Virus record (IMG/VR): IMGVR_UViG_3300037465_000316
Source of the DNA: a virus
Reading direction: 5' to 3' (one strand)
DNA: 64,000 nt
Part shown: positions 1-64,000 of the stretch, piece after piece
How positions within the stretch are numbered: position 1 is the stretch's first letter
Layout of the letters: each line of letters opens with the position of its first letter
Position numbers and translations under genes: made by a program
Notes under the pieces: model-generated
The model's database searches: none
What the model was told of the DNA's origin: nothing
What the model saw: the letters and a program-made list of their open reading frames with translations, nothing else

Positions 1-75
1 ATCCCGAATATCTGCATCATGGTTGATGCCCCCAATCACCTATATGTGACTAAAGATTACATTGTCACCCATAAC
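1..75 (+). other. Intein C-terminal blocks F/G (class 3-like)
   Basis: ICIMVDAPNHLYVTKDYIVTHN|T: HN followed by Thr+1, with the block-F Cys and block-G Thr of the class 3 WCT triplet. Confidence 0.85.
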
Positions 76-2007
76 ACATATATGTTCGTAAAACTGGTTC
101 GCCATCTTTACGCCCATCATAGCCAGACGCTGCGTGTAATTGTCCTGGCTCACCGCCAGGAGCTAATCAACCAGCCTCGTAAAGCCTTTGTCGAAGAGTT
201 CAAGAAAGAGATTCTTGAACGAAGCATAAAGGTGGGGATGGTCGGCGGTTTTGGTGGAAGGACACATACCGACTACAACGCCAATATCATCTGTGCCTCG
301 ATTCAGAGCCTGGTCAGGAATGGCGCGCCGAGTGACCACCTACTCAATATCCTAAAATCCGGCCCAATTCAGTACATCATCTACGATGAAGTTCATCACT
401 GCGAAGCGCCCACCTTTAAGATTCCGGTCGAGACAATGGAGGAGAGGGCAAGAGACGCTGGCATGATTTTGAAGCTGCTTGGTGTCACCGCAACCCCGGA
501 GCGGGGAGACGGTCTATCGCTAGGGCAAACCTTCCCCGCTATAAAAGAACGTGATGAGTTCACCTACTACTATCCCTATAAAAAAGCGCGGGCAGATAAA
601 GTAGTCTGTCCGGTTGATCCCTACGTAATGGAGACGGGTATTGACCTATCGGGCATCCGGCTTAATAAACACGGCGAGGTATCTGAAAAGCGATTTACCG
701 AGCTGTGGGAGGCAGGCAATTGGGCAGACCTGATGATTGAGGGCTGGCGGCAGCGTGGGGGCCAGGAGATTCCTACGGTTGCCTTCATGCCCTCAGTGGA
801 AATCTCGGCCAGCTTCATCAAACACCTGGGCGAGAAGCATGGCATTGAGGGTGGTCATATCTCTGCGCCAGGAGAGGCCAAGACGAAGGGCTGCTGGCGC
901 TGGTCAAACGTCACACAGCAGATGATTCGTGTAGAACGCAGCGAATTGTTGAAGCTCTACGAGCAAGGCAAGATCAATTTCATCTCTAACGTTAATATCC
1001 TGACCGAAGGGTGGGATGCTCCCCGGACCAAACTCCTTCTACTCTGCCGGCCCACAGAATCACCAGGAACATACATCCAGATGGTTGGCCGGGCGACCCG
1101 GCCCTGGCCGGGTCCATACGTCAATGGGGAAAGGGCAATCCTGCTTCATGTGGGATTCGAGGGTCATCACTTTGTTGAGACAAACTCCATCGGTGATGTG
1201 GTTCCACAAGAGGCCAAAGAGGAAGTTGAGGAGCTGCTTGATAAAATCTCAATAGCTCAACCAGCCACCATTGTCTGTAACGAATGTGGCAATCCTCTTC
1301 AACCGGACCCAAATCGAAAGCTACACCTTTGGTGCAGTCACTGCCAAATGAGCTTTGGGCCGAAAGGAACAAATCCTGACGACTTTCTTGACCTAATTGA
1401 CACCTCAAAACCGTCAGGCAAGGGAGTGCATTTCCGCTCCATCGAATTAATGGCCAAGGCCAAGGTTCAATGGATAAAGGAAAAGGGAATCATGTCGGTT
1501 TACCTGGGCGTCGCCGGCGCTGAGGATAAGCTCCCTGGGGAGTTTGGCAAGTTTAGGCTCGACCTTGGCCAGAGACGATTCCTGGCCTGTAAAGCCGAGC
1601 GCAGCCTAGTGATCATCGCACCTGGCCATTGTCCGAAGGTAGGAGATGAGGGCTTCGCCCTCATTGGTGTGTACCGGACGGTCAAGTCCTCGACCTATAT
1701 TAGAACAGGTCAATTCGGGGGATATCACAAATACGAATTTCACCCCTATGACTACGAAGTTCTCAAGATAGGTGAGCTGGATACCGTTCTGGACCGGTCT
1801 GACATGATCATTAATGAGCTGCATGACCCACTCTTGTCCGAAAAAGACAAAGGCTGGCGAGCAGAGCCGGCTACGACAAAACAGATTGAGGCGCTTAGAA
1901 CTGTAGGCTATGAGCCTGTGCCTGGAATCAAGAAAGGAGATGCCTCAAACATACAAAGTTTCAAATACGCTCAATTCTACTTGAGACGCAAAGGGGTCAT
2001 TGATTGA
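1..2007 (+). CDS. SF2 (DEAD/DEAH-type) helicase, 5'-partial, with the C-terminal end of an intein at Walker A and a Zn-ribbon
   Basis: Frame open from base 1. Motifs VLAHRQEL (Ia), YDEVHH (II), VTATPER (III), NVNILTEGWDAP (V), YIQMVGRATR (VI); CNECG...CSHC. Confidence 0.9.
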   Translation: MPNICIMVDAPNHLYVTKDYIVTHNTYMFVKLVRHLYAHHSQTLRVIVLAHRQELINQPRKAFVEEFKKEILERSIKVGMVGGFGGRTHTDYNANIICASIQSLVRNGAPSDHLLNILKSGPIQYIIYDEVHHCEAPTFKIPVETMEERARDAGMILKLLGVTATPERGDGLSLGQTFPAIKERDEFTYYYPYKKARADKVVCPVDPYVMETGIDLSGIRLNKHGEVSEKRFTELWEAGNWADLMIEGWRQRGGQEIPTVAFMPSVEISASFIKHLGEKHGIEGGHISAPGEAKTKGCWRWSNVTQQMIRVERSELLKLYEQGKINFISNVNILTEGWDAPRTKLLLLCRPTESPGTYIQMVGRATRPWPGPYVNGERAILLHVGFEGHHFVETNSIGDVVPQEAKEEVEELLDKISIAQPATIVCNECGNPLQPDPNRKLHLWCSHCQMSFGPKGTNPDDFLDLIDTSKPSGKGVHFRSIELMAKAKVQWIKEKGIMSVYLGVAGAEDKLPGEFGKFRLDLGQRRFLACKAERSLVIIAPGHCPKVGDEGFALIGVYRTVKSSTYIRTGQFGGYHKYEFHPYDYEVLKIGELDTVLDRSDMIINELHDPLLSEKDKGWRAEPATTKQIEALRTVGYEPVPGIKKGDASNIQSFKYAQFYLRRKGVID

Positions 2008-3172: not shown

Positions 3173-4291
3173 ATGGCATTCAAATCATTCAAGGAAGTTA
3201 AAAAGGTTAATGCGTTACTTGGTGAGCCACTGCTGGTCTGGTTGTCGGCGCCAGCAGCTACCGGGAAGAGCACTCTCACTCTCGACTTCTTCCGAACCCT
3301 GTGTGTGAACGGGAGCATTGGGATTCTTATCCCGATGGATCACCGGCCTGCCATTTTCGAGGAATTGTTTGAGAAAGAGGGAGTGCCTGTTTATCCTGTA
3401 GACCCGGACCCAACCAAGTGGAACAACGAAGATGCAATCCTTAAGGCGCTGCGAACCAATTTACCCGGCTCCGGGGCAAATGCCGTTGCCTGGGATAGCG
3501 TCACACCACGATTTCGGGAGATCATTGCCGAGGCTCAGACTGTGGCAGAATTGACGCCAGAGGAGCGCAAGGCATTGACCGGCAACTCCAATAAAATCAG
3601 TGCTTATCAACCGAAAGCTCTATTCATGGAGAAGGTTGCTGCTGTGGCAACCTATGGGCTTAATACCATCTGGATCAGCCATGAGCATGAAGGCAAGGAT
3701 AAAGACGCCAAAGACGTAATGAAGACCTCTATTACCAACACGGAGATTAAGAAGTTCCGACGGAACTTGAATCTGCATCTCCGTACCGGGGTTGAGGGTG
3801 GCCGCTACTACGTCGAGATCGTGTGGGCCCGGGACCGGCAAGCACTGGCTGGAAAAAAGCTGTACGACGAACAGGGCTTGTTCAAGGGGATGTGGAATCG
3901 CATCATTGCCGAGTTCTCTGACGCGCCTGTGGTCCTGTGGGACCAAGTAAAATACTGGTCATCACCTGATGATGCCATCACCGCGGCAATGGAGCAATTT
4001 GTTATCGGGCCGAATGGGGAGCAAATTCTGCCGTTCAATGAAATGAACCATGCCGAGAATGCGTACAATAAACTAAAGAAGGAGGTAGTTCTTCCCTTGA
4101 TGACACCCGCGTGGAAGTCCAAGAATGCCAAAAACCCCCACGCAGCTGCCGAACTCATGGCTACCCACTGGAAGGCCGAGGTCGAGAAGCGGCTGCAAGC
4201 CCGGCTGCTTGAGGCCACCGGCGAACAACTTGAGCCAGCCGAACCTCCTGCTGAAGAACCTGCCGAGCAGCAGCCTGAGTTTACCTTTTAA
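3173..4291 (+). CDS. AAA-family ATPase, Sak4/AAA_24-like recombination protein
   Basis: Walker A APAATGKS, Walker B AWDSVT, WISHE; ATG at 3173 follows GAGGTG RBS and the upstream stop. Confidence 0.7.
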   Translation: MAFKSFKEVKKVNALLGEPLLVWLSAPAATGKSTLTLDFFRTLCVNGSIGILIPMDHRPAIFEELFEKEGVPVYPVDPDPTKWNNEDAILKALRTNLPGSGANAVAWDSVTPRFREIIAEAQTVAELTPEERKALTGNSNKISAYQPKALFMEKVAAVATYGLNTIWISHEHEGKDKDAKDVMKTSITNTEIKKFRRNLNLHLRTGVEGGRYYVEIVWARDRQALAGKKLYDEQGLFKGMWNRIIAEFSDAPVVLWDQVKYWSSPDDAITAAMEQFVIGPNGEQILPFNEMNHAENAYNKLKKEVVLPLMTPAWKSKNAKNPHAAAELMATHWKAEVEKRLQARLLEATGEQLEPAEPPAEEPAEQQPEFTF

Positions 4292-4316
4292 TTTACCCTG
4301 GGGTAAATACACCCCT

Positions 4317-7869: not shown

Positions 7870-9054
7870 TTAAGGTATCTCCCAAAAATTGCCAGCAACA
7901 TGCCAAACATCAGTGCCTGGATCAGCGACTGGAAAAAGATAGCGTGTTCTATTTTCAACTTGGGTTAAGCTCGCCTCCCCAAAGTCAAATTCAACCAGGA
8001 ATGAGAAGGGGGCAAGTGTCCAACGTTGCAGCTTTAGCCGGTTGATACCACCTTTACGTTGCCATAAAGTCACGAACAAATATGTACTATTCATATCGGC
8101 CCAAATAGGCATAAGCTCATCCTGGCTATCAGATCGGAGAATACACTCCGTCCAGAGGCCGCCATTATCCAGAGTTAGCCACATCGAGCCGCGTTGAAGC
8201 GGCCCAGCCGCTTCCCATTTCCCCAGGGTAACAATAAAGCTGTCATTACCCAAGACCTGGATGAAGCTGACATCATCAATCGTAGGTGGAGTTCCATCAC
8301 CCCAGGTATTGGCGACCGCTCCAGGTGGTATATCAAGCCAATTGGCGCCGTTGCTCAGGGATTTTTGAACTATACCATCACTCACCCTCCAACGGGTGTA
8401 ACTGACCGGCGTAATATGGCCGTGGTGGTAATCATCCCCAAAAGTGATGATAGGCATGCCGAGCAGATACTCTGGATCAGTTACCCAGGCGGACAGTTCC
8501 CCCACCTCGACGCCAGAAATCGCTCGGACCGCAAAGTAGACACGGGGTGGCGTACCAGTATCGAAAGCGATTTGATGCTCGCGGTAACTGGTTTCGGCAA
8601 TTTGGGTTGGCCCAATTCCATCAGGGTTAGTAGCCCAGAATATCTGATAACTGGTAGCTCCGGGGACTTCTGACCAGCGAATTGTCCATTCGCTGTCCGG
8701 ACAGGATGCGTCGGCGCTCGCGTAGCTGGGAGGCTTGGGAATATTAGTTCCCTGGCCAGCCACATCAGTGCAATTGAATTGAGGCAGAATGTCGGTCAGA
8801 ATGAACCGCTGCTTATTCTGGCTGCCATCACGTTCATAACGGCTGCTGATCTTACAGAACAGACCGGGCCGAAGAGTTTTTCTATTTTGCCTGATAAGGT
8901 CGGGTATGAGTACGTCTCTCAGCACTCGCCGAGGCGAGCCGGCCAGCCTGACATGAACGTGATCGTCGAATACGGCTGTAATAACTCCGTCGTAAGCGTG
9001 GTCGCCGGGCGGCCGGGTGAGTTGGTCTACATACTCGAACTTTGTTCTCTTCAT
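7870..9054 (-). CDS. minor tail protein with fibronectin type III-like domain
   Basis: IRWSEVPGATSYQIFW...YFAVRAISG..GELS FN3 pattern; Asp-box-like motifs. Confidence 0.65.
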   Translation of the reverse strand: MKRTKFEYVDQLTRPPGDHAYDGVITAVFDDHVHVRLAGSPRRVLRDVLIPDLIRQNRKTLRPGLFCKISSRYERDGSQNKQRFILTDILPQFNCTDVAGQGTNIPKPPSYASADASCPDSEWTIRWSEVPGATSYQIFWATNPDGIGPTQIAETSYREHQIAFDTGTPPRVYFAVRAISGVEVGELSAWVTDPEYLLGMPIITFGDDYHHGHITPVSYTRWRVSDGIVQKSLSNGANWLDIPPGAVANTWGDGTPPTIDDVSFIQVLGNDSFIVTLGKWEAAGPLQRGSMWLTLDNGGLWTECILRSDSQDELMPIWADMNSTYLFVTLWQRKGGINRLKLQRWTLAPFSFLVEFDFGEASLTQVENRTRYLFPVADPGTDVWHVAGNFWEIP

Positions 9055-9647
9055 CTTACAGGCCAGTTCATTTGATGCACCAGGTCAATATAACCTATCT
9101 TGGCCAAGACATCAGCCAGGTGGTCAATTGAATATGGGTGCAGCTTCTTCTCTATACGAGGCAGATTCTTGGTGAGCCAATCACTCATGTCCCACGAGCC
9201 GGTGTAAGCTCGGCTTGCGCCCCACCAATCCGCAACCATTTCGCGGACATAGATTTCGGGCATGGGAATAATTCCATTGATAACATCCCGACTACCCTGG
9301 GGAGTGTAACCATCTGAGAATATCCAATACTCTGGATGGTGGGGATTATGGCCAATATGATGCTTCCATGCACGTGCAAAGCCATCTGGATCGCCGCCGC
9401 CATGAAAATGCCTGGCGTAGTAAGGAAACTCTTCCGGGCTGAACTTCGATAGGTCGTGAGCAGCGAGCTGGATAACCGGCAAACCACCAATTCTCAAACC
9501 GGCCTCAAACACATAAAATTTATGCCAGTGAAGCGACTCTAAATACTCAATCTCGGCTCGATATCTGGCCAGATCGTCTATTGGCTCTGTCCTTTTCTCG
9601 CTGGAGGCTTCTAGAGATTTTTCGTTTGGGTCTTGCATGGATGTCAA
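9051..9647 (-). CDS. DUF5662-like HD-type protein
   Basis: HKFYV...HDLSKFSPEEF...AWKHH..HNPHHPEYW...MPEIYVREMVADWWGAS. Confidence 0.75.
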   Translation of the reverse strand: MTSMQDPNEKSLEASSEKRTEPIDDLARYRAEIEYLESLHWHKFYVFEAGLRIGGLPVIQLAAHDLSKFSPEEFPYYARHFHGGGDPDGFARAWKHHIGHNPHHPEYWIFSDGYTPQGSRDVINGIIPMPEIYVREMVADWWGASRAYTGSWDMSDWLTKNLPRIEKKLHPYSIDHLADVLAKIGYIDLVHQMNWPVR

Positions 9648-9764: not shown

Positions 9765-12700
9765 TCATAGGATATACTGCTGCCTCGTTGAAGTCTGCAT
9801 TTCGGCCTGGTGCTTATCCAGGTCGAAACTAATAACTATATCATCTACCATGTAAGTTCCATTGACCTCCTGCTGAGTGATGATAATATTGGTTTGATCT
9901 TCTGGTTCGAGTCGCACATCGGGCGGGCTGGTAAATGTGGCCTGCACCATCTGCTCGGCTATCTCCTGAAGAATGAGCCTGGCCTCGCGGTAACAGGCTT
10001 CCACGGTCATCAAATTTGGATTGTTCACCTGGGTGTAACGCCTGCCCCTGGCCATCAGATTGGAGTTGGCGTAAGTAGCTCTCTGAGATGCTCCTAAAAC
10101 CTCGACTGCCGAATAGAATTGATCCGACTGTTCATATTGGTTCTGAAGCAGATTATTCTCGAAAGAGGGGCCAATATCGTGGTTCTTGAAGTAGCTGATC
10201 AGGAGCTTACCGTAGGGCCGCCACACCCCCTTGATGTGGCGATGGCCGATACCCGCCTTAATAGCCCCCATCATATCCTGGCCGGGATCCAGGGTTGCAT
10301 TCTCGAAAATTTCGTGCAGTTCTGGCAGACGGATATTGGTGAAGGTGGCGTTTTCATTGTTGGCATACAGGCCAAAATACTGGCCAAGCTCTTCATCGAG
10401 GTGGAAGTGGCCGACATAGTTACCCTCTACCCACATTGAGTAAAGGTCATTTCTTAGCGAAACTCTGACCCGATAAGGCGTATTAGGTTTAATCTGAAAG
10501 GGGCAGGGGGAGTAGTCTCGCACGTCGGCAACCTCGTTACCATCCTCATAACGCCGGAAGACTACATAGCAGTTCAGGGTCTTATCACCATTCTTATAAG
10601 TGGAGTTGGCTACAATCCCAAACAAAACGCAGTCGGCGAGCGGATCACCATTAGTAACGGCACGGACAAAGACGCCTGCCTCACCGCCATCGTCGCTAAT
10701 CTCCACGGTAAAATCGAGGCAGGGGTTCTCAACCGGATAGTTGATGCCGGTGTAAAGGGTGTTTGCATTGACCACGACTGGACCGGCCACATTTACGTCT
10801 GACCGAAACTCGGTTTCGGTCAGACCCTGCCATGCGTAATGAGTGGCCAGTTCTTCCAGATTCATATCACGCACACCGTCTGTGGCTTCGATATCCCAAA
10901 AGTCACAAACGTTGTCGGTCTGGTCAATATAGTTTCGGCCAGGCCAAAGAGTGTCCCACTGAATACCAGAGTGGCCTCGCGCAACCAGCCCCACCCGGCC
11001 TGCACCATTATGGCCGGAGTTATGGCTAAAGGCATGTCGCCAGAGAGTTCGCGGATTGTTCCCCTCCCAATACGGCCGGTAAAAGCAGTGGATGACCCCA
11101 CCTAGCACTTGCAGCTTCATTTCAGCTGCCTTACCGGGGGTCAGGCCGGTGGCGTCTGTATGGGCAATTGCCTGGTGAATCCAGCGGTTGTTGCTCTGCC
11201 AGTCTGGGTCGCCGTCATCAAAGTCAGACAGCATCAGGTAGAGTTTGTTACGCCCCACCGGAAACTCACCATAGTCCGGCCTGTCATGTACCAGCGTTCC
11301 CCAATATGCGCCGGCGCGATCTCCCAAGTGTGAACCTCGATTGCTGTCATCTTCACCGAGGCCAAAGTCAGAATTGGCTTCCCAACAAAAGATGTATTTT
11401 TTGCCAGCCACATCGTCGGAGTAATCTCCCTGTACAGCCCGGCAGATGAGGCCAACCATAGTACTCCCTTGAGGGACATAGTTCCAGCAATCGGGATCAG
11501 GACAATCAGCCCCCGGAGGCATACCACAGTCGTCACTAAACCACTTAATGTAGTCAATCAAGCCGTTGGTGCGATGAATCTGTGTTGAGACAGCACAGCC
11601 GCTGTTGGCCCTGAAACTGAAATTGCCATAATTGATGTCATCCCCAAACCGGACTGCCGCCTGAATTGCTGCGTCAATATGTGGCTCAAGTGTGACCCAG
11701 GCAATATCATTAAAAAACGTTCCCCGTTTGTAGTCCTTACGAGGATCAGCCACTTCACCCGGCCCACCGTACTGGCCAGGCTTGAGGTTCACTGACCCAC
11801 CGCCTGTCATGGCCCAGGGAAAAGCTTCCATCCGGTAGACCAGGATAGAAGCAAGGTGGTCATAGACGCCGGTGAAAAACTTCTCTGGCCAGTTGGCTTT
11901 CCTGAGCAGCCACCACCCCTTGTGATACGCAACATTTGCGGGATGCTGAACTGTCGCGCCGCTGACATCGAGAAGGGGGCCAAGTTCGCAGGGTGTCCCT
12001 TCGGGACCGATGGTGATGGTTTTCATGGGCAGAATATCCTCGATCGCTTCTGCCCTGGTATACATCAAGTGAAATTCCGCCCTCGCCGTTAGAGGGCCTT
12101 TATGATATCGCTGTGCCTGATTGATGGTTATTTGGGACAAGTCAATGATGCCCTGACCGATCTGAATTGTTTCCCCAGGGTAGCCATAAAATGCTCGAAC
12201 AAGCTGGCCCTCTCTCAGAAACGTCTCAAATCGGCCAGAGCCTTTAATAAGACCGGTCTTGATCGCCATTGACCAACGATTGCTGCGGCTTACCTGGTAG
12301 TTATTGGTCACAAGCTCCATATTGAGCTTGTAGGTGTCGGGAACATCACAAAGGAGGTTCGCGGGGTCAGATGCGAGAATAGCCGAGTGACCTACAGCAC
12401 AGAGTAATTTGACGCCGGCATGATTGATACTGAGTACCCTGGTCGCTGCCAGCTCGACCGGGTCACCAAGATATTGAAATTGGGTTATGTTTCGGCCATC
12501 AGCCGAAATCAGGGCGTAAACTGTTTCCAGATTGCGGTGGATGTTCTCAAAGCCTGAGACTTGCTCGAAGTCAGCAGGCTCTGCCAACCGTACCCAGGAT
12601 ATGATATGCCGGCCATCACTCTCTGGTGATGATGCTACAAACGTGTTGAGCCAAAGTTGATTCTGGTCGTCATAGTCAGCCTCATCGTTGTAGAATGACC

Positions 12701-14332: not shown

Positions 14333-17300
14333 TTATTTATAACCCTGGTCGAAATCCTCGACGTGAAGAAACCCATCGGCCTTAAGTGCCTCGGTGTCAA
14401 CTACGATCTTTGCTCCAGATTGAAGAGCGTTAGCAATTACACTAAGAAGATTCAACATCTTTTCTTCAGTTTGGCTACCGCCCTCCTTCAGCACCAGTGC
14501 GCCATGAGAGGGAACGACATACTCTTCCTGGCCATGTTCTGACAACATGGCAAACGTTGGTCGGCGAGTTGATCCACCCTCGGCCATCATGTGAGCGCCG
14601 AACTGATTAGGCCGGGAAGACGACGAAGGACGATCAGGCATATTCCTGGAGATAGAGCCTAAGTGCTCGGCCATCTTGGCCAGCTCTCTATTCCACTCTT
14701 TTGTGGTAGCCAGGCCAAGCTGCTGAGTGGCATTATAAAGCTGCTGCGCTTTTTGAAGCTCGCGCTGCCAACCGAGCATTTTCTCATCCTCGACCGCTCG
14801 GGCCTTGGCCAGTTGGAGAGAATCTTTTTGGCGTTGAAGATTGGCCAGGGCCATTTCAAGCTCAAGATTATGGCGGTCTTCGAGCAATGGGGTTTCACGC
14901 TCGTAGTTTTCTAGCCAGGCTTTATGACGGTCAGACATGAGTTGCATCTGTTCTTGAGCGAAAGCTCTCTGCTTTTCCCGGTCTTGTTCCTGAAGCTCCA
15001 TAATCTGTTGCTGATATTCAAATGACCCCTCCATCTGCTCACGCTGCAAGGGTCGAGCGATTCCCCATCGCTCGCGGTCGGTAGCCAAATCTTCTTTTTG
15101 CCACTCGTACTGCTGTTCGGCCCTGCCTTCCTCTCTACTCATCTGGCTGCGTTGGAGGTTAGCCATAATGGTGGCTCGCTCCATTTGCCTTTTGATGTCC
15201 AGGCGCTGCCGGCCAGTGGCGTAGCGCAAAGACCGCTCCATATCTTCCTGCTGCCAGCCTTGCTGCATCTCAAAGGTTTCACGCTTATAGCCAAAGTCCT
15301 CGACCTGCCAGGCGCGAGTAGTTTCCATGCGGGATTCTTGCTTGTCGAAGTCCTGCTCACGCCACTGAGTTTGAAGATCAAAGAGCTTGAGGTTAATTTC
15401 CCAATTGCGCTTGAAATTAGTTTCTTGAAGCCTGGCGTATTCGTCTTGTTTGTCCAGATTCCACTGCATCTGTTGCATGGTCAGGTCATGTTGGCGGTTC
15501 TGGAAGCCGAAGTCTTTTTCTCGCATATCCATGCGGAGGTCCCAGAACTGTTCTTCCAGGTCGAGACGTTGTTCGGCCCAATCAATCTCCTGTTGCTGGT
15601 AGGAGAATGACCTGCTTAAATCCTCGCCTCGGCGCCGATCCTCAATCTGCCTCGTTTCACGCTCGTAACGAGGTCGCCAGGGTTCGGCCTGGTCCATCAG
15701 GGCTAACTCTGGCGTGCCGGCTGCGTAAGCCTGCTGGGAGTAATCATAGGCGTTCCCCAGGGTAATTTGGCTTAGATAGCGCTGGGCTTGGTACTGGCCC
15801 TTGTCACGCATGATCTGGTCGTAGGTCTTGGTAATGCCGGTGACATTTCCAAATAGGCCGGTTGCCTGAACGCTGCCACTGACTGCCTGCATTGAGGACA
15901 TCAGGCTTTCAATTTCGGAGATGCTTCTGACCCCGGAGAACATTTCTAGAATCTGGTTGGTCATCGGGCTGCGAAAGCCCACCCCGGCAGCTTTGGGTGC
16001 TTGACCGATGTACTTAACAAGCTGCTCAGGCTCCATGCCAGCATCGAGAGCCATTTGAGCGATGTTGGTTATATTCCGACGCGCCGGGCCGGAAATGATG
16101 TCTTTAGCCCCTGCTCCAGTAACCTCGGCATATTCCCGGATGATCTCACCGGCCTGTTCAACTGTGACCCGGCCACCCAACTCCCTTTTGAAATCCTCAC
16201 GGATGTTGGTGATCTCTTTAGCAAGGTCAGCCTCTCTTGTACCTCGCCTGGCTTCTAAAACGTCTCTTGATTCCCGATAGCGTTTTTCCTCCGGGGACAG
16301 GGCTTCTTCTATAGGTGGTTGGCCTGACCATCTACGGGCTATCTCTTCATTAGTTCCCTGACCCCACCCAAGCCAGCCCAGGGCAGTGCCGACTGGATTT
16401 CTCATGCCCATGACTTTGGCATTGACCAGTGTATCCAGCCCAAACCCGGCAACATCTTTATACATCCCAAAGGTATCGGCAACCGATTGACCAGAATAGT
16501 CTACCTGGTTGAACTGGCGTGGGTCAATACCCATCATCCGCATTAAGGGAGAGGCTGCGCCCATTGTGGCAAAGTCCATTATACCTCTAAGGGGGACGTT
16601 GTTCATAAAGCCATTCTGCCTGGCCAGCTCATACACTCCAGTCGCTGCTGCGCCGCCAATAAAAGGCGCGGCCAACAAGCCTGCTCCGCCCAGGGCGCTA
16701 CCGCTACCCAAAAGGCCAAGACCTTGTTGAGCGAGGCCAAACATACCGAATTTATTGGCCAGGAAGCCGGCTGTGCCGAGGCCAACGCCATAAGTGCCAA
16801 GTTTCCCCAGGGTAGGCGCAAACTGTTCGCTCTCGGCCATTTTCTGACCGATCCAGTCTACCCAGGGTGAGACAGCTTCGTTTACTCCCTTGCCCACGCC
16901 AATGGTAAAATCTCCCATTGTGGCACGCTGCCGCTGGACAGCGGCAATATCTGGCCCAACTCCACCCATGCCGAGAGCAAATTCCATTCGGCCTCGACTC
17001 ATCTCCGACGACAGGAATCCTTCGCGGGCCCGGGCGAGCGGCTGGCCTAGCATATAGTAACCCTGCGCCAACGCTTGTGATTCGTAAAACAAGCGTTGGG
17101 GATTGAACTGCCTGCCAAACCATCCCTGCATACGGTCCATAATGGTTTGAGGTTGTCTGCCCATCGAACGAGGCGTTCCACCTGCTGACGTGGATAGAAG
17201 CGCCTGAAGCTGGTCTATCTCAGCTTCTCTAGCCCCTAAAGCCTGCTTTCTGCCAGTGATACGCCGGTTATACTCATCCATCTGTTCGCGCACAGGTAAC

Positions 17301-47860: not shown

Positions 47861-47891
47861 AAGCCCCAGGGAAGTCCCTTGGGGCTTTTTT
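47861..47891 (+). terminator. intrinsic terminator
   Basis: AAGCCCCAGGGA-AG-TCCCTTGGGGC followed by T6. Confidence 0.75.
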
Positions 47892-48401: not shown

Positions 48402-51206
48402 ATGAGAAAGACAACAATCTTCCGCTACGTACTTCAAGCAGCCGGACTAGCCCCGGAGATGCGCGGCCACCGGCACATGAGCGAAGACGCCGCCAATTTC
48501 ACCACGAAGAATCAACCTGGCCTGACCTTTCTGAAGGTTGATGTGAAAAGCAATTTCAAGAGCCTCGACGCTGAGAATATGCTTACAACCTGGCCGGTGC
48601 TGGACAAAGAAGGCAAGAATACCGGCGCCGAGGCGATCTACTGCGGGCACGGAAGTTCGGTTAAGCACGGCTATGTTTATTTCCTGGTCGTTCGGAGAGA
48701 CGGTCAGGAGATAGTTGAGGCCACAGACTACCTGGTGAAAGCCTGGGAGATGTTAGGTATCAGCGAGAACCTCTACCGTTTCGGTGCTCACCTGATGCCC
48801 AAGACAATGGCTTCTCTAACCATGAACGGAGCTAAGGTGATGGGTGTGCCTGATGGCTCAATCCTGTACTGCTCGGATGGTAAGAAGTCCTTGTTCCGAG
48901 ATGGGCACGGCGTCATCAATAAGAGCCTGAAAGCCCCCCTGATGAAGCAGAAGCCGCGAGTGTTTCAGTTCAAGGATGGCAGTCTATTGACCCCGACAGT
49001 CTTTAGCCAACTTGACTTCAGTCAGGCGGTTGCCGATGAACTTCTAGAGGGCTTCGAGAAGCGCAGCAAGGCGCTGACTTCTGAATCCTACTTCAAGTTC
49101 GTGCAGGCCAGCCGCTTTGGAAACGAGCGGGGTGAAAACCTGATAGGTAAATCCATCTTTGCTGATGTGGCGATGATGGAAGAAGTTATGGCCGAGATTG
49201 CCCGAAGGGGAATCAACGGCGAGGTTCAGAACTTACTCGCCCGACACCCAGCCTTCTCACCACGCCTGGCCAAAGGGTTGGCGAGAGATATGTATAAGGT
49301 GGCGACCACCGGAGGACTGAAAGGTACGTACTACAAGATAGCCCCCTGCCCAAGTCTCCCTGGGGAAACCGAGCCGGTTATCATTCGCAAATCCAACAAA
49401 ACCGGCAAGGCCCTGGTCATTCGCTACCCGGTGAGCGACAGCAAATCAGTGCTGGCCGCAACCTCGAAAGAGGACCGACTAGACTTCAAGGGCGAGATGG
49501 TGCAGCTCCGGGTTACGACGAAGAATCTAACCTGGTCGGCCAAAGGCACAGCCACCTTCCGAAACCTCGAAAGCGCGTACATCATCACCCCGGACGGAGA
49601 GCGAATCGAAGTACCATCTGACGCAGCCTACATTTGGGGCAGCGAGGATCAGAAAATGCCCTGCAAACCCAACCTGATGGAAGTCATCACCGAGGATATT
49701 GAGGTGATGATAACCGAATGGTATCGGCCGGCAGATGTGGCTCTAATGCCCTGTGGCTATGTGGATGGCGTTTATCACGAAGAGCTTGACCACGCCCACA
49801 GCCAGAACGCCGATTTTGATGGCGATGGGGTTGTAGTCAGTTGGGTAGGCAATCGGCCAAATCTCTGGCAAGCCTTCAAAGCCCTCAACGGGACCGAGTT
49901 GGCTGTGGCCAAGATGAAGAAGTCAAAGACGCCTTTGGTCAAGTTCAGCAACCTCAACGAGTTCCAGGCCAACAGCACGACCGTCTATCAAATGATCGGG
50001 CGCTCGATTGCGGATTACGTTGGCCAGGTCACAAACCTGATGCAGCGTTATCTGCTCTACAGCCCTGCCCAGCGCGAAAAACTGGCACAGGCCAGGTTCA
50101 ATATGAGCCGGCTCGAACTTGAGGCTGAGTTTGCTTTCTACCTACAACTGGCCGTTGACCTGTTCAAGTTCAACGATAGCGAGCTGGTGGAAAAGCTGGC
50201 CCGGTTCATTGCTCACGTCGAGGCCGTTTTCAGGCTGGAAGCCTCGTTGTTCAATGAGGGCGATGGCCTGGGCAAAATCAAAATGGGACACGTCGGCAAA
50301 GACAAGAACCAGGCTAACCTGGGGAAAGGTTATATGTGGTTCACAAACCACATTCCAGAGGTAGATGAGTTTGCCGGTTGCGATGGATTCATTCCCTCTC
50401 TGATGCGCCAGACGCTGGCCAGGGACGAAAGCGGCAATTTCGTCCTATGGGGTGCTGAGATTGCCAACAAGGGAATCTTGCCCAATGCCACGTACCAGGT
50501 GTGGGTAGCACCGACAAACCAGCGCGCCCTGAAGCTAGCCGGTGAGATCAAAGAACGCTACGGCAAGGAGGCTTACGGCCTCGCTGTTGGCTACGAGGTC
50601 GAATCAGGCAACGGTGAAGATGTGCTAAAGAGTGAGTGGCTGGACTTCATCACCGAGTTTCGGGCTGAGATAGTCGAGCAGGCCAGGCGTGAGCGTATCA
50701 GCCTGCAAGACCTGTTCGACGCTCTATGGTTTAGCTATACGAATAAACCTGACCAGCAAGGCGACCAATCAATGCCGATCCTGCTCCTACCGGAACAGTT
50801 CTTCGGGATGGTCGAGCGACTGATCAAGGACGAGTTCGGCCAGTGGGTTCATCCTGACCTGAAAGGCAAACTCATTGATAAAACCCAGTGGCTGCCGCTG
50901 CTAAATATCTCGCAGCAGTGGGTCAACTATCCAGAGTCGCCATTGGTCAAGGGGTTGGACGGTAAGGCCATCGTGGTTGAAGCCCAATGCCACGAAGTGG
51001 TTCGTTCAGGCCAGAAGAGAGTAGTCAGTGTGGTAATTCCAGAGGATGATGCTTACGAGGCTCATCTGAGAGAAGCCAAAGGGTTGCCGCTGGGCAGCCT
51101 GGGCTACACATTAACCACCTACGAGGGTAAGTTCAAGGCTATGTTCAGATGGACGCCGGGAAAAACCAACGGCGGCACAATGAATGTGGCTCTAATTCCA
51201 GCTTAA
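48402..51206 (+). CDS. single-subunit double-psi beta-barrel RNA polymerase (YonO / cellular RdRP-like)
   Basis: DGHGVI (48900), IRYP (49422), QLR..KG (49503-49547), NADFDGD (49806-49826), VGQVTN, QLAVDLFK. Confidence 0.9.
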   Translation: MRKTTIFRYVLQAAGLAPEMRGHRHMSEDAANFTTKNQPGLTFLKVDVKSNFKSLDAENMLTTWPVLDKEGKNTGAEAIYCGHGSSVKHGYVYFLVVRRDGQEIVEATDYLVKAWEMLGISENLYRFGAHLMPKTMASLTMNGAKVMGVPDGSILYCSDGKKSLFRDGHGVINKSLKAPLMKQKPRVFQFKDGSLLTPTVFSQLDFSQAVADELLEGFEKRSKALTSESYFKFVQASRFGNERGENLIGKSIFADVAMMEEVMAEIARRGINGEVQNLLARHPAFSPRLAKGLARDMYKVATTGGLKGTYYKIAPCPSLPGETEPVIIRKSNKTGKALVIRYPVSDSKSVLAATSKEDRLDFKGEMVQLRVTTKNLTWSAKGTATFRNLESAYIITPDGERIEVPSDAAYIWGSEDQKMPCKPNLMEVITEDIEVMITEWYRPADVALMPCGYVDGVYHEELDHAHSQNADFDGDGVVVSWVGNRPNLWQAFKALNGTELAVAKMKKSKTPLVKFSNLNEFQANSTTVYQMIGRSIADYVGQVTNLMQRYLLYSPAQREKLAQARFNMSRLELEAEFAFYLQLAVDLFKFNDSELVEKLARFIAHVEAVFRLEASLFNEGDGLGKIKMGHVGKDKNQANLGKGYMWFTNHIPEVDEFAGCDGFIPSLMRQTLARDESGNFVLWGAEIANKGILPNATYQVWVAPTNQRALKLAGEIKERYGKEAYGLAVGYEVESGNGEDVLKSEWLDFITEFRAEIVEQARRERISLQDLFDALWFSYTNKPDQQGDQSMPILLLPEQFFGMVERLIKDEFGQWVHPDLKGKLIDKTQWLPLLNISQQWVNYPESPLVKGLDGKAIVVEAQCHEVVRSGQKRVVSVVIPEDDAYEAHLREAKGLPLGSLGYTLTTYEGKFKAMFRWTPGKTNGGTMNVALIPA

Positions 51207-51271
51207 TTAACCAAGTCTCCCTGGGGTAATTTACCCTGGGGAGACAATTTACTTTGAAAGGACAAAGCACG

Positions 51272-52160: not shown

Positions 52161-52212
52161 CCCCCTCGCCAGTTTTCACCCTGGGGAAAAATTTTTCCCC
52201 AGGGTAAAAGAC

Positions 52213-58077: not shown

Positions 58078-58725
58078 TTAGGCGAAAACGCCTAAGATCA
58101 TATTCCCCAGGGTAACATGTGCTTTCTCAAGCTCGACCGGACCAGATGAGCCATTGATGTCGAGCCACTGGACGCCCTTATTGAGCTGCTTCGCCGGGTC
58201 ACTTAGAGCGAAGTCATGCAGGGTGTAAACCACTGCATTGCCGGTGGTATGAATCTGGTAGGCATAGGCCAGCGATTCTAAGACAGTGCCTTTGTAAAGG
58301 CTCTTATTAGTAGGTACGGCCTTTTGTTGAATGATAATATTCTTCACGTCAGACCAACCAAACCGGAAATTATTGGTCAGGTGAGCCATAAAGGTGAGGT
58401 CGTTATCCAAGACTATGCCCTGACCGTCAGCGGGGTCGAGGCTGATGACATCAACAATATCAACGGCGCCTAAATTTTCCACATTTAGAAATTCCCGCTC
58501 TGGAACAATAGTAAACAATTCATTTACGGCCACCTGAGCCACATCAAAGGCCATGAGCGCAAAGACGAGGATATGCTTTAGTTTCCCCCTAAAAATCACC
58601 TCTGCATCCTGCACCCAGGCGGTAAGTGAAGTCCGGCCATTTGTTGGATCTCCTATCTCATCACTGGCGAAACTGATATTTTCCACGATGAGATAGTAAA
58701 GCTGTTCGAGTTTGCGACGATCCAT
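58078..58725 (-). CDS. hypothetical protein heading the lysis-like cassette
   Basis: AAAGGAG RBS before ATG 58725; no catalytic motif recognised. Confidence 0.6.
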   Translation of the reverse strand: MDRRKLEQLYYLIVENISFASDEIGDPTNGRTSLTAWVQDAEVIFRGKLKHILVFALMAFDVAQVAVNELFTIVPEREFLNVENLGAVDIVDVISLDPADGQGIVLDNDLTFMAHLTNNFRFGWSDVKNIIIQQKAVPTNKSLYKGTVLESLAYAYQIHTTGNAVVYTLHDFALSDPAKQLNKGVQWLDINGSSGPVELEKAHVTLGNMILGVFA

Positions 58726-60137: not shown

Positions 60138-63100
60138 ACTGGCCAGCCAGGAGAAGGCGCTTCATGTGCCCACTCCACTAACCATCATTCAAAAGATTCG
60201 CAATCATCTGCGTGGATATGGATCAAGGGGAATCATCTTTGACCCCTGCCTCGGCACAGGCGCTGCGGCAATTACCCTGGGGAAACTCCTGGGGGAAAAC
60301 TGGCAGGTGTATGGGGTCGAGCTGGATATCCAGCGAGCCGAAGAAGCTCAGAATCTACTCGGTAAGGACCATGTCATCAACGACTCGTTTCAAAATGTCC
60401 ATGTCACCGGCAATTGTGACCTCTTGTTCCTAAATCCACCCTACGATGATGACAGGGGAGAGCGGATGGAGCTTCAATTCTTGCGCTGGAGCCACAAAAC
60501 TCTCAGGAATAAAGGTGTTCTGGTCTACATTGTCAAGGATAAATTTGTTGACCAGGGCCAATACTCCGAGAAAACTCTAAAGCTTCTCAGGTCATGTGGC
60601 TTCTCCGGCGTCAAGGTGTTCAAATTCACCGAACCTGAGTACAGCGACTATCAGCAAATTGTGCTACTGGCCAAGAAGCTGGAGCATGGATATATCTCTA
60701 ACGGTGACATGGCCATAAAGGGTGAGATTGGCTGGGTCCCGAGCGGATATAGCGACTACCAGTATGTGCAGTATCTCGACCTCCGGCCGGAGAGCCAAAA
60801 CGACAATGACATGCATCTGGCCAGAAAACCAGGGAAAGAGCAGATAGTCTCTTTGGTCGCCCAACAGAATTGGTCGGCCTTTGAAACCCTGATCGGCAGC
60901 CCGGAAGATGCAGCCCGGCTCAAGCCATTGACCAGGCTCAAGGATACTAACGCAGTCCTGGTAGCCTGCTCCGGTCTGCTCAATAACGCGGTGATTGATA
61001 ACCGGGTTATCAAGGGCAGCACCTTTATCTATAAGGCAGTTAAGGGGAAAGTGGACCGCGAGGACGGGGGTACGGAGTGGAAGGTAGTTGAGGAAACGCC
61101 TACACGGTTCACTATCCTGGACTTGGCCACCAATACGATTTCATCCATAGATGAAATAAATAACAGCGATGAATACACCAGCTTTCTGGTAGCTAATGCT
61201 CGCCAGTTTGTTGAAGCCTGCGTGACGAATTACCCCCCACTTTACCGGCCGGAGCGCCACCGGCTTAATTTCAATCATCTCAACCCACCCAAAAAGCTGC
61301 CTGGCCGCGAAGATGCTCGTGGAGCTTTGCCAGAGCAGGAAGAATTGATGTCCGCTGTTATAAGAGGTCTTAATGGCCATAAAATCATAAACATCATTGC
61401 CCAGATGGGGGTAGGAAAAGCACAACCTTTAAATGCCAAAATTCTAACTCCAAAGGGGTGGAAGTTGATGGGAGAAATCAAAGTGGGTGACAAAGTATGT
61501 ACTCCCGATGGAGAAAACTCCATCGTTATCGGTGTATTCCCTCAAGGAGAAAAGGACATCTATCGAGTGACATTCAATGATGGCAGTTCTACAGAATGCT
61601 GTGAGGATCACCTGTGGGCGGTCAATTCTCCCTGGCGCAACTGGATGAATATGCCTTATCAAGTAAAGCCACTAAAGAAGTTCATGAACAACTTGGCTCA
61701 CAAAAATGGAAACCGACAAGTATTCATCCCAATGACCAAACCGGTCGAGTTCGAGGAGGAACATGATTTACCATTAGACCCATATCTTTTGGGAGTCTTA
61801 CTTGGTGATGGTGGGTTAACAGCTAATATTCCTTATCTTTCTACAGCAGATCAAGAGATTCTTGATTCTGTAAAAGCGCTACTTCCCGAAGGAGTTGAAC
61901 CAAAGTATGCAGGAAAGTATGATTATCGTCTATCCAAATCAAATGGGAAAATAGGTCATGGTCATACAAATCCACTAACCGAAATACTGCGAGATTTAGA
62001 GTTGATGGGCAAAAGCTCATGTCGAAAATTTATACCTAATATCTATATATATTCTTCAGTTAAAGATCGAATAGCCCTGCTTCAAGGTCTAATGGATACT
62101 GACGGTCATGTGGGACATAATCCAAGAGGTAGCTCATCAATTCCCGAATTTTCTACATGTTCCAGTGAACTGGCAAAAAATGTTCAGGAATTGATACAAT
62201 CTTTGGGTGGAAAAGCTGTCATAGCTACCAAAAAAACTGCCAGACAACTATCCTATAGATTACATATCAGCCTACCTTATGGAATCAACCCATTCAGACT
62301 GAAACGTAAATCCGAGACCTTTATACCCAAAACCAAATATCAACCTGTTAGGTGTGTTGAGAAAGTTGAATATATTGGGCGCAAAGAAGCGCAATGTATC
62401 TTAATTGATCACCCTGACCACCTATACATCACGGATGATTACATCGTAACTCATAATACTCTTCAATCCATCGGCATTGCCTACACCTACCTGGTGCAAA
62501 AGAAGTGGTTCAACAAGAAAATAGTGGTTCTCATCCCCTCCACGCCGGCAGACCTGGCGAACAAATGGATAGGTGAAATCAAGACAGTTCTCAAAGATCA
62601 GTTCAAGGCCGGTCAAGTGTGGGCTGCTCAAGCCGAGACGATCACCGATATTCAAAAAGCCTTTACCCGGCCGGGTATTGGCTTCATCGTCATCCGAGAA
62701 TACTACGCGAAGGCTGATAGTCCTTGGCTAACCGTAAACGCGCCGGCGCGCCGGGAGAAGATCGAAACAGGTGTGAAGGTCAGAAACCCAGAGACAGGCC
62801 AATTCGAGGATGAAAGTATAATCGTCAAGATTCGCTACTGCCCTTCTTGTCTCCAGCCCCTGACAGAGCAAGAAAAGGATATCCTCGATACCAACTTTCT
62901 CAAAGAGAAAGAGGCTGAGAACGAGGGCAAGAATCGCTACTCGGCCACCGGCCGAAAAATGCTCACCTGTCAGGATGTATACGACGATGGCAATCTTATC
63001 AAGAAAGGTTGTGGTAATGCTTTCTACACAAAGCTAAGAGCCGACTCCCTGGGGAAATATCCCCTGGCCAGGTACATCCGAAACCACTATGCCAGGCAGT

Positions 63101-64000
63101 ATTTTCTCATCGAGGATGAGTGTTTTCCTGGAAACACTCTAGTAGAAACCATTAATGGCCCTATCCCGATCAAAGATGTAAAGGTAGGGGACTTGATTCT
63201 AACCGAGAAAGACGGGGAATTAACCTACCGAAAAGTAACCCGTACTTATATCCAACCAAAGCTCAAACCAATGGTTAAGGTTACTCACTCGCATGGGAGC
63301 TTCATCTGCACATGTGACCATAAGGTTTTTGTAAGTGACAAAAAAATCGAAGCTCGACATCTTAATACAGGAGATATACTGACCCATGCACAACCGACCG
63401 TGCAAAGTTTGCGGTTGGATAGTGCTGAGATTCTGGAACAGCGAAATCGAACGGGATCTCCCTGGGGTAATCTCAAAAATTCAAGAGTGTGTAAAGTCGA
63501 GAAAATCTCAATCACCGACGAACTAATTTATGACCTTGAAGTTGAAGATACCCATAGGTACTTTGCTAATGGTATCCTGGTTTCTAATTGCCATGAGTTC
63601 AAGGCCGGTAGCTCCAATCGCGGCTATGCAGCCCAAGACCTCATTTCGGCCTGCATCTGTGGCATCCAGATGACAGGAACTTTCTTTAACGGTAAAGCCT
63701 CCGGGGTTTTCTACATGCTTTACCGTTCCTCACCAACCTTTCGTCAGATGTATGCCCACAATGAGTTGGGCAAATTCGTGGATGTCTATGGCGTCAAGGA
63801 GCAGGTGTTTAAGGAAGTTCCAGTGCGAGATGGCGGCAGCGGCTACTCTGGCTACCGCCGAATCGAAGGAGCGCCTCGTGAGGCTCCCGGTCTGCACCCC
63901 AGCCTGGCCAGCCTGATTCTCCCAAACACTGTTTTCATGTCCAAGTATGATCTCGACTTTGACCTGGCTCCCTACTCAGAGCACACTCTGTACGTCAAGC
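60130..64000 (+). CDS. N6-MTase (DUF6094-like)-SF2 helicase fusion, 3'-partial, with two inteins
   Basis: MARLASQEK; FDPCLGTG; FLNPPY; QMGVGK|T; EDE|CH. In-frame at the positions I translated; no stop seen to base 64000. Confidence 0.85.
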   Translation, partial: MARLASQEKALHVPTPLTIIQKIRNHLRGYGSRGIIFDPCLGTGAAAITLGKLLGENWQVYGVELDIQRAEEAQNLLGKDHVINDSFQNVHVTGNCDLLFLNPPYDDDRGERMELQFLRWSHKTLRNKGVLVYIVKDKFVDQGQYSEKTLKLLRSCGFSGVKVFKFTEPEYSDYQQIVLLAKKLEHGYISNGDMAIKGEIGWVPSGYSDYQYVQYLDLRPESQNDNDMHLARKPGKEQIVSLVAQQNWSAFETLIGSPEDAARLKPLTRLKDTNAVLVACSGLLNNAVIDNRVIKGSTFIYKAVKGKVDREDGGTEWKVVEETPTRFTILDLATNTISSIDEINNSDEYTSFLVANARQFVEACVTNYPPLYRPERHRLNFNHLNPPKKLPGREDARGALPEQEELMSAVIRGLNGHKIINIIAQMGVGKAQPLNAKILTPKGWKLMGEIKVGDKVCTPDGENSIVIGVFPQGEKDIYRVTFNDGSSTECCEDHLWAVNSPWRNWMNMPYQVKPLKKFMNNLAHKNGNRQVFIPMTKPVEFEEEHDLPLDPYLLGVLLGDGGLTANIPYLSTADQEILDSVKALLPEGVEPKYAGKYDYRLSKSNGKIGHGHTNPLTEILRDLELMGKSSCRKFIPNIYIYSSVKDRIALLQGLMDTDGHVGHNPRGSSSIPEFSTCSSELAKNVQELIQSLGGKAVIATKKTARQLSYRLHISLPYGINPFRLKRKSETFIPKTKYQPVRCVEKVEYIGRKEAQCILIDHPDHLYITDDYIVTHNTLQSIGIAYTYLVQKKWFNKKIVVLIPSTPADLANKWIGEIKTVLKDQFKAGQVWAAQAETITDIQKAFTRPGIGFIVIREYYAKADSPWLTVNAPARREKIETGVKVRNPETGQFEDESIIVKIRYCPSCLQPLTEQEKDILDTNFLKEKEAENEGKNRYSATGRKMLTCQDVYDDGNLIKKGCGNAFYTKLRADSLGKYPLARYIRNHYARQYFLIEDECFPGNTLVETINGPIPIKDVKVGDLILTEKDGELTYRKVTRTYIQPKLKPMVKVTHSHGSFICTCDHKVFVSDKKIEARHLNTGDILTHAQPTVQSLRLDSAEILEQRNRTGSPWGNLKNSRVCKVEKISITDELIYDLEVEDTHRYFANGILVSNCHEFKAGSSNRGYAAQDLISACICGIQMTGTFFNGKASGVFYMLYRSSPTFRQMYAHNELGKFVDVYGVKEQVFKEVPVRDGGSGYSGYRRIEGAPREAPGLHPSLASLILPNTVFMSKYDLDFDLAPYSEHTLYVK
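61420..62457 (+). mobile_element. class 3-type intein with LAGLIDADG homing endonuclease
   Basis: Ala1 (AQPLNAKILTP); block B CCEDHLW; LLGVLLGDG and LQGLMDTDG; QCI...IVTHN|T. Confidence 0.9.
63121..63588 (+). mobile_element. mini-intein in Walker B
   Basis: CFPGNTLV...CTCDHKV...YDLEVEDTHRYFANGILVSN|C; 156 aa, no endonuclease motifs. Confidence 0.85.

Follow-up and report, generated by a model that had tools for sequence, protein, structure and literature searches.

The window analysed here is a 64,000-bp stretch of IMG/VR virus record IMGVR_UViG_3300037465_000316, and it belongs to a novel tailed phage of freshwater metagenomic origin; contigs from two freshwater metagenomes contain the stretch. 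Our subject is a short DNA word, CCCTGGGG on one strand and CCCCAGGG on the other, that recurs throughout it. The protein and motif searches reported below covered this 64-kb window of the 79,908-bp source contig. Its genes fall into three blocks: plus strand from 1 to 4291, minus strand from 4359 to 34815, and plus strand again from 35062 to 64000. The minus-strand block is the structural module, with the large subunit of the terminase, TerL (31989-33596), the portal protein (30173-31873), a tail-tube family protein and a tape-measure-like open reading frame (ORF) of 2883 aa. The second plus-strand block carries an integrase-like ORF (37281-38201), which indicates a temperate phage, and it encodes two adenine methyltransferases (one D12-class and one Dam-family), a third methyltransferase-like ORF (phrog_799), a Mom-like protein, DUF6884, ASCH and PAPS-reductase-like proteins, RNase H, SSB and an intein-containing primase/helicase. 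The modification-type genes are clustered at 38.8-44.2 kb and 54.0-55.1 kb.

The core word occurs 33 times in the window, 22 times on the plus strand and 11 times on the minus strand, and every start coordinate agrees with the one given in a first-pass annotation that had picked out the word by eye, on both strands. It is the most significant 8-mer of the window and also the most frequent. Dinucleotide-preserving shuffles of the window predict 3.5 ± 1.9 copies (maximum 9) and a third-order Markov model predicts 3.3; the control word of the same composition, CCCCTGGG, which the annotation had put at about four copies, was indeed counted 4 times, which is the chance level. That annotation had also proposed a codon-preserving null as the decisive check. 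We permuted synonymous codons within each gene in 500 shuffles, so that every protein and the codon usage of each gene were kept, and obtained 3.5 ± 1.7 coding copies of the core (maximum 10 in 500) as against 26 observed. For the core in its flanked form, YW-core-WR, 0.52 copies are expected in genes (maximum 4) and 22 are observed. Since the enrichment survives this null, it is not due to composition, codon usage or protein sequence.

Alignment of the 33 copies gives a consensus unit of 14 bp, T-Y-W-CCC-TG-GGG-W-R-A. To the left of the core the counts are T21 and C9 at position -3, T21 and C10 at -2, and T18 and A15 at -1; to the right they are A26 and T6 at +1, A20 and G11 at +2, and A23 at +3. 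Positions more than three bases from the core are uninformative. The YW...WR flanks are present in 29 of the 33 copies, where 1 in 16 would be expected (P~4e-31), and the T and C counts at -2 and -3 mirror the complements of the A and G counts at +2 and +3 almost exactly. This mirroring of the two flanks puts the axis of symmetry between the T and the G, away from the axis of CCWGG. The original description of an interrupted palindrome, WCCC-TG-GGGW, thus holds and can be extended to 14 bp, with the correction that individual copies often lack self-complementarity outside CCC/GGG. The core is sharp: each of its single-substitution variants with good flanks is found at most once, at the chance level, as against 29 cognate copies. 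All other CCC-NN-GGG centres combined account for 6 copies, and CCCCGGGG does not occur.

The flanked form reaches 0.45 per kb, or one copy per ~2 kb. Plus and minus copies follow one another along the window in 11 runs with no consistent switch of strand, and the spacing of core copies (coefficient of variation 0.75, P=0.05) is only marginally more even than random. Coding copies make up 79% of the total (26/33) and fall in all frames, 15 in sense and 11 in antisense orientation, which bears out the earlier remark on frames and strands. Intergenic DNA amounts to only 7.5% of the window (4.8 kb) and yet holds 7 of the 33 copies, a roughly 3-fold enrichment, at gene ends. The individual copies, given as 14-bp units unless they form part of a larger structure, are as follows.

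1530..1543, plus strand: copy, coding, helicase-like ORF 19-2007, sense
4291..4308, plus strand: copy with 8-bp arms, intergenic, directly after the stop of ORF 3089-4291, convergent genes either side
8218..8231, minus strand: copy, coding, minus ORF 7870-9054, sense
9292..9305, plus strand: copy, coding, minus ORF 9051-9647, antisense
12170..12183, minus strand: copy, coding, 1278-aa tail protein ORF, sense
15752..15765, minus strand: copy, coding, 2883-aa tape-measure-like ORF, sense, reads T-L-G
16802..16815, minus strand: copy, coding, tape-measure-like ORF, sense
18563..18576, minus strand: copy, coding, tape-measure-like ORF, sense
20018..20031, plus strand: copy, coding, tape-measure-like ORF, antisense
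23888..23901, plus strand: copy, intergenic, within a few bases past the stop of minus ORF 23904-24554
27022..27035, plus strand: copy, coding, minus ORF 26528-27103, antisense, peptide LPRE
29907..29920, plus strand: copy, coding, minus ORF 29252-29980, antisense
32206..32219, plus strand: copy, TerL, antisense, variable stretch
33028..33041, plus strand: copy, TerL, antisense, conserved P-Q-G
34152..34165, plus strand: copy, coding, minus ORF 33995-34417, antisense
35148..35161, plus strand: copy, coding, ORF 35062-35505, sense
39937..39950, plus strand: copy, coding, ORF 39305-40663, sense
41762..41775, minus strand: copy, coding, ORF 41715-42143, antisense
44929..44942, plus strand: copy, coding, ORF 44813-45661, sense
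45165..45178, plus strand: copy, coding, ORF 44813-45661, sense
45841..45854, plus strand: copy, intergenic, immediately before ORF 45866-46180; a CCTGGGG further downstream pairs with it, -15 kcal/mol
46668..46681, minus strand: copy, coding, ORF 46386-46706, antisense
47861..47887, plus strand: terminator-like hairpin after a stop, 11-bp stem and T-run, -20.3 kcal/mol; the 5' arm contains copy 47864
48193..48206, minus strand: copy, small ORF 48007-48225, antisense
49355..49368, plus strand: copy, coding, 934-aa ORF with NADFDGD, sense
51215..51245, plus strand: two direct copies (51219, 51234), 14-bp stem with G.T wobble, -25.3 kcal/mol; directly after the stop of ORF 48402-51206
52179..52204, no strand: two copies in inverted orientation that make up a perfect palindrome of 26 bp, -25.5 kcal/mol; follows the stop of ORF 51843-52160
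58102..58115, minus strand: copy, near the 3' end of minus ORF 58078-58725, sense
60272..60285, plus strand: copy, coding, primase/helicase-like ORF 60130-, sense
63044..63057, plus strand: copy, coding, ORF 60130-, sense
63457..63470, plus strand: copy, coding, ORF 60130-, sense

The long-armed intergenic copies that had been singled out after stop codons, at 4291-4308, 51215-51245 and 52179-52204, are all present as described.

Comparison with related phages points to the DNA, not the protein, as the level at which the word is kept. The peptide P-Q-G at the TerL site 33031 is conserved in four relatives, which spell it CCA CAG GGG, CCG CAA GGC or CCT CAA GGA; the spelling CCC CAG GGA is used only by the window. 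At site 27025 the peptide L-P-R-E is kept as L-P-R-D in two relatives (L005 and L001), again with other codons, and at the TerL site 32209 the relatives have other residues. That relatives retain the peptide with other synonymous codons indicates selection or drive on the DNA, and together with the codon-preserving shuffle it supports the DNA-level selection suggested at the outset. The word positions that we compared are not common to the relatives. On this evidence the sites arose in the window lineage, by synonymous and some non-synonymous changes.

The GenBank phage collection contains no nucleotide or portal-protein match to the window, and of the TerL relatives at 55-76% identity every one is metagenomic, apart from one prophage in a metagenome-assembled genome of Anaerolineales. 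Several relatives, identified here by our contig handles and their TerL identity to the window, carry a word of their own.

G001, TerL 75%: CCCTGGGG, mostly with TT...AAG flanks, 5 in 25 kb
L005, TerL 75%: a variant, TCTCGCGGGAA, with overlapping 8-mers present 5-6 times as against 0.4 expected
L006, TerL 68%: TTCCCGCGGGAA, 8 in 21 kb, P~1e-19
G658, TerL 43%: TTCCG-N3-CGGAA, 26 in 52.6 kb as against 0.06 expected, 18 of them intragenic
L030, TerL 36%: a perfect palindrome, TTCCCCCGGGGGAA, 3 copies
G659, TerL 34%, complete at 84.6 kb: TTCCTA-N-TAGGAA, 12 as against 0.0 expected, 9 of them intragenic

In many further relatives the ~20 kb available of each contains no word of this type. Where words are present they share a style: the left arm is rich in pyrimidines and ends in CC, the centre is short, and the right arm opens with GG and is rich in purines. 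They occur at 0.15-0.5 per kb and mostly within genes. Lineage-specific spellings across the clade argue for a reader intrinsic to the phages and against a host feature. In G658 the centre of the word is NGA on one strand in 24/26 copies (TGA in 12, AGA in 11) with mixed orientation. The G658 word, seen on contigs L230-L232, has symmetric arms and an asymmetric centre, and it forms close inverted pairs at 34239/34263 and 35337/35358. The Anaerolineales prophage relative (L002) is without a word of the TTCC..GGAA type; it has GGCCGGCC at 11 sites in 21 kb and tandem AGGATGA heptamers in inverted, intergenic blocks at 1365-1416, 8538-8605 and 16157-16241. In G659, GAGTTCGA occurs 9 times in 2.6 kb (L036 1865-4465) and resembles the T-arms of a tRNA gene cluster.

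Some neighbouring features of the window may be recorded here. A second tier of over-represented words, all with uninformative flanks (for example near 6732, 8752, 9565, 11772, 16620, 17322, 60139 and 63064), includes CTGGCCAG with 16 sites, all coding, as against 3.6 under the synonymous shuffle; TGGCCAAG with 28 as against 9 expected; and, against a third-order Markov expectation, CTCCGGGG (14 versus 1.8) and ATCGAGGA (13 versus 1.9). These may be codon-pair effects or additional DNA-level words. Within the plus-strand block, three minus-strand ORFs (147, 75 and 215 aa) lie at 57371-58725, of which the 75-aa ORF matches a holin PHROG; they are probably a lysis cassette and not a repressor module. 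The primase/helicase-like ORF 60130-63999 runs past the end of the window to 1597 aa, with Hint/LAGLIDADG intein domains in the gene table of an identical contig. The nearest ESM Atlas structural neighbour of the model of ORF 35062-35505 is a Chloroflexota hypothetical-protein cluster, which is consistent with the Chloroflexota link suggested by the prophage relative. Finally, ORF 48402-51206 (934 aa) has no Pfam, PHROG or PDB-sequence match but contains an exact NADFDGD at residue 469 (nt 49806). This is the catalytic motif of two-barrel RNA polymerases, and the ORF may encode a YonO-like single-subunit polymerase.

Such a polymerase, together with the SSB, lends some interest to the reading of the word as an RNA or single-stranded DNA hairpin, that is, a promoter, pause site or terminator for a phage RNA polymerase or a signal for lagging-strand priming. 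Four intergenic sets do fold strongly after genes (-15 to -25 kcal/mol), the mean spacing of ~2 kb is slightly regular, and the G658 word, with a 5-bp stem and, in those same 24 copies, a 3-base NGA loop, has the geometry of N4-type promoters. However, only a minority of the window's copies form true structures right after stop codons. A lone copy, with 3-bp arms and a 2-base centre, cannot fold, and the flanks do not covary either in the 6-2-6 or in the shifted 5-3-5 register (Fisher P 0.4-0.66), which means that base pairing is not under maintenance and that the dispersed copies are no hairpins. In the window their orientation is unrelated to transcription, so these copies, 26 of 33 of them intragenic, are not promoters; orientation is mixed in G658 as well, and antisense promoters within late genes would be senseless. 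The hairpin promoters for a phage RNA polymerase that the first-pass annotation had entertained thus lose their footing, and we regard any hairpin signal as the general explanation of the word as very unlikely.

A different possibility is that the word belongs to the host and that a temperate phage has adopted it as a mark of "self", as a DNA-uptake sequence (DUS), a Chi-like signal or a host iterated palindrome. The integrase-like ORF is compatible with this, and the terminator-like inverted-pair hairpins after genes resemble the pairs formed by DUS and by uptake signal sequences (USS). The Anaerolineales genome with the related prophage has 578 copies of the core in 9 Mb, about 2x the uniform expectation, and the 56 genomes of that host's order have at most 3 copies each of the 14-mer pattern as against 14 in the window. 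Among 401 Chloroflexota genomes the densest has the core at 0.39 per kb, but the flanks accompany only 24/629 copies (4%, as expected by chance), so that core flanks there are random, and the flanked word reaches at most 0.015 per kb in the densest genome as against 0.45 in the window. In 251 Cyanobacteriota it does not exceed 34 copies per genome or 0.01 per kb. All told, the flanked word came nowhere near the phage density in the ~700 bacterial genomes searched, where a similar frequency in the host had been named as the sign of a host trait. An IMG/VR scan for TTACCCTGGGGAAA returned 67 single chance matches and no word-rich phage, a full-text literature search for the 8-mer found unrelated eukaryotic papers only, and a TerL search of genome contigs for the host gave no match. 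The word is not a host trait among the genomes searched. Related phages, moreover, have different words with the same architecture, and the window's word lacks the orientation bias of Chi or KOPS. An adopted host word is, in our estimation, a long shot.

The word is also distinct from what are likely to be the classical operators of early promoters. The two strongest sigma-70-like promoters of the window are at 34900-34928 (TTGACA-17-TACAAT) and 52213-52241 (TTGACC-17-TATAAT), and the 26-bp palindrome formed by two copies of the word at 52179-52204 lies directly upstream of the second. A different palindrome of 16 bp, GTGATTAANTAATCAC, is present in 6 copies with 0-2 mismatches, all of them intergenic, as against 1.35 expected on both strands:

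2387-2402: GTGATTAANTAATCAC copy
34847-34862: GTGATTAANTAATCAC copy
34936-34951: GTGATTAANTAATCAC copy
38832-38847: GTGATTAANTAATCAC copy
52243-52258: GTGATTAANTAATCAC copy
58968-58983: GTGATTAANTAATCAC copy

The promoter at 34900-34928 has one of these copies on either side, and a third copy comes after the TATAAT of the other promoter (52236-52241). The set thus has the look of promoter operators, and as its palindrome differs from the CCCTGGGG word, that word is part of another system.

Restriction-site avoidance bears on the asymmetric centre of the word. Palindromes of 6 bp are strongly avoided in the window (496 observed versus 962 expected), examples, as observed/expected, being CTCGAG 0/28.8, GAGCTC 0/19.4, GAATTC 1/16.3, CCATGG 1/14.9, CCCGGG 2/17.4 and CCGCGG 2/8.8; CCTAGG is purged too. 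Besides CTCGAG and GAGCTC, the window has no copy of ATCGAT, TGCGCA, GGTACC, GTCGAC, CGTACG, GTGCAC or GACGTC. The frequency of CTAG is 0.23 of that expected. GAGCCC/GGGCTC, which is not palindromic, has a single copy where 25 are expected (BanII-type GRGCYC), and TGGCCA and GCCGGC are not avoided. CCGG is over-represented, so the avoidance is site-specific and not a matter of CpG decay. Within the frame CCC-NN-GGG, the centres CG, GC, TA, AT, CC/GG and GA/TC each generate purged sites, and TG/CA is the sole pyrimidine-purine centre free of them. In L030, whose word has a CG centre, CCCGGG is not avoided (6 versus 5.0 expected). The central TG is thus probably constrained by restriction avoidance, as a partial explanation only. 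We also considered the CTC variant of L005 as avoidance of the SacII site, and ruled this out because CCGCGG is not depleted in L005 (6 versus 6.9 expected).

The sharpness of the core invites two readings that involve enzymes. In the first, which resembles the highly iterated palindromes (HIPs) of cyanobacterial chromosomes and was raised early on for the CCWGG within the word, a methyltransferase with biased mismatch repair, or selection for methyl-directed repair, would make and maintain the exact 8-mer. A sharp, GC-rich, near-palindromic 8-bp core in all frames and in non-coding DNA, at ~0.5 per kb, is close to HIP densities; related genomes have alternative palindromes, as in the alternate HIPs of Elhai (PMC4390886); and the phage has three methyltransferase-like proteins and a Mom-like protein, while L005 and L006 encode large C5 methyltransferases. 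In the window itself, however, neither a C5 or N4 cytosine methyltransferase nor a Vsr-type protein was found, and its two typed enzymes are N6-adenine methyltransferases (D12, Dam). The symmetry axis is the wrong one for CCWGG, methyltransferase sites are usually shorter than this 14-bp unit with its informative flanks, the bacterial genomes searched do not show the word as a trait, and TG instead of CG corresponds to deamination, not to repair. These points weaken the HIP-like option, and we consider it quite unlikely.

In the second reading the word is the target of a phage base-modification enzyme from the island of DUF6884, ASCH and Mom-like genes, or the PAPS-reductase-like protein, and regularly spaced modified sites would protect the genome. 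The two clusters of modification-type genes would suit this, the core is as sharp as enzyme recognition sites are, and L006, which has a sister motif, encodes a homologue of ORF 39305-40663 (57% identity) and a D12 methyltransferase. On the other hand, being a target would by itself leave the 7-fold intragenic excess unexplained, and an assignment of ORF 39305-40663 as TGT/DpdA finds no support in Pfam, PHROGs or PDB sequences. G658 and G659 have dispersed palindromes without detectable homologues of the modification genes, and the genome, from which restriction sites are still purged, does not look globally protected. Modification as the purpose of the word, another of the options first put forward, seems to us improbable.

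The reading that we favour, tentatively and with somewhat less than even confidence, is that the word marks places all over the genome where a symmetric DNA-binding protein of the phage docks on duplex DNA. We infer that a protein reads the word, that the phage encodes it, and what it might do. The mirrored flanks, in which there is no covariation, fit two independently read half-sites and not base pairing. The reader would be a sequence-specific, two-fold symmetric (dimeric) phage protein, distinct from the one that reads the promoter operators, and each half-site would be GGG-W-R-A, read outward from the central TG/CA step. A flexible pyrimidine-purine step would be needed at the centre, where TG would remain because CG and TA give the purged CCCGGG and CCTAGG. 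The phage would maintain a site every ~2 kb, writing the word into its genes by synonymous and some non-synonymous changes and also setting copies, singly or paired, directly after stop codons. Such a reader would act on the genome as a whole and not gene by gene; candidate roles are road-blocking or silencing of read-through transcription at gene ends and within operons, compaction or segregation, and shielding.

Several observations weigh against docking sites of this kind. Of the four options first put forward, an array bound by a phage protein fits best, but the reader was not found among the window ORFs scanned, nor was a repressor: Pfam and PHROGs searches of ~60 window ORFs named few of them and returned no helix-turn-helix or ParB-type protein (a ParB_N protein is present in one relative, L007), ESM Atlas look-ups for ORFs 35062-35505 and 36934-37284 gave no DNA-binding lead, and PDB sequence searches with ORFs 39305-40663, 48402-51206 and 41107-41718 gave no match. 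The promoter operators differ from the word, hence it is no simple copy of a stoperator system. An invariant yet asymmetric central dinucleotide is unusual for a symmetric dimer. Among relatives the spacing of the outer TTCC-GGAA varies from 4 to 6 bp, which makes one conserved reader unlikely; only structural genes and SSB are detectably common to the window, G658 and G659; and no structural protein tracks the motif type, none being closer to the window in G001, which has the same word, than in L005 or L006.

A broader proposal, which we think more probably wrong than right but worth stating, concerns the clade. The TerL-defined siphovirus clade to which the window belongs, uncultured, freshwater and linked to Chloroflexota, might possess an undescribed "genome word" system, in which each phage would have its own pyrimidine-CC...GG-purine palindrome every 2-5 kb in genes and gaps alike. 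A fast-evolving phage protein would read it to mark or organise the chromosome (self-identity, nuclease shielding, compaction), separately from the promoter operators and with a centre shaped by restriction-site avoidance. We put this forward as unlikely.

More generally, dispersed and selected DNA words inside genes amount to a second information layer of a phage genome, read at the level of DNA. The cases known so far, stoperators among them, are few in number and asymmetric, and they go with the immunity repressor. Recurrence with lineage-specific spellings over a clade of 34-76% TerL identity provides a comparative series for finding the reader and its specificity code, and the case illustrates how restriction avoidance can limit the spelling of a functional site. 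Words of this kind are strong lineage markers for uncultured phages and a reason for caution in codon-based analyses of phage genes.

Among known systems, the OB sites of KorB on the IncP plasmid RK2 are short palindromes read by a ParB-family global regulator at 12 sites. They are comparable in being spread over a replicon of ~60 kb, some of them far from promoters, and in RK2 they are read by one symmetric protein; most of the 12, however, are not in coding sequence, whereas the window has 33 copies that mostly are, and, unlike RK2 with its KorB, the window yielded no ParB_N protein among the ORFs scanned. The DUS of Neisseria and the USS of Haemophilus are host chromosome traits read by competence proteins, at ~1 per kb. 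These too have a sharp core with weaker flanks, lie on both strands and in all frames, and form inverted-pair hairpins after genes, but they are chromosomal, and the window's word is not at comparable density in the bacterial genomes searched. N4-type hairpin promoters have a 5-7 bp stem and a 3-base loop, a geometry that the G658 word fits and that the window's word, with its 3-bp arms and flanks without covariation, does not; they are few and lie upstream of and co-oriented with early genes, whereas 26 of the window's 33 copies are intragenic and both orientations occur. Chi and KOPS words show a strong strand bias tied to the direction of replication or entry, in contrast to a word with symmetric flanks and no consistent strand switch.

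HIP1 and the alternate HIPs (PMC4390886, PMC5861425) are likewise sharp, GC-rich (near-)palindromes of 8 bp with an excess of at least 10-fold, present in non-coding DNA as well as in every frame, and the word differs from lineage to lineage. They are chromosomal and tied to cognate methyltransferases, whereas the window's word is phage-borne, with flanks that are informative and a centre that is asymmetric; a cognate cytosine methyltransferase was not found in the window, nor was the word seen in the 251 cyanobacterial genomes. The SPBRE of the Bacillus prophage SPbeta is a 15-bp repeat bound by the master repressor MrpR, with ~10 copies in promoter regions (PMC10516654); it too is a repeated element of ~15 bp in a temperate phage, and SPbeta encodes a YonO-type polymerase, but the window's word is mostly intragenic. 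Cluster A mycobacteriophages have stoperators (L5 gp71, Bxb1 gp69; PMC6550527, PMC9283540), which resemble the word in their tens of 13-14-bp copies across a temperate phage, far from promoters, and in a spelling that differs between related phages; in Cluster A the variation of the motifs among relatives follows that of the repressor (PMC6550527). A stoperator, however, is asymmetric and points with transcription, most stoperators lie in short intergenic gaps, and their sequence is that of the promoter operators, whereas the window's word is nearly symmetric, unoriented and 79% intragenic, and its promoter operators are a different palindrome. Taken together, these comparisons place the word among dispersed operators as a variant form, outside each of the known families, since it lacks defining features of every one of them. 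What the window contributes is a set of spellings that runs through the clade, a word distinct from the promoter operators, and a connection between the centre of that word and restriction avoidance.

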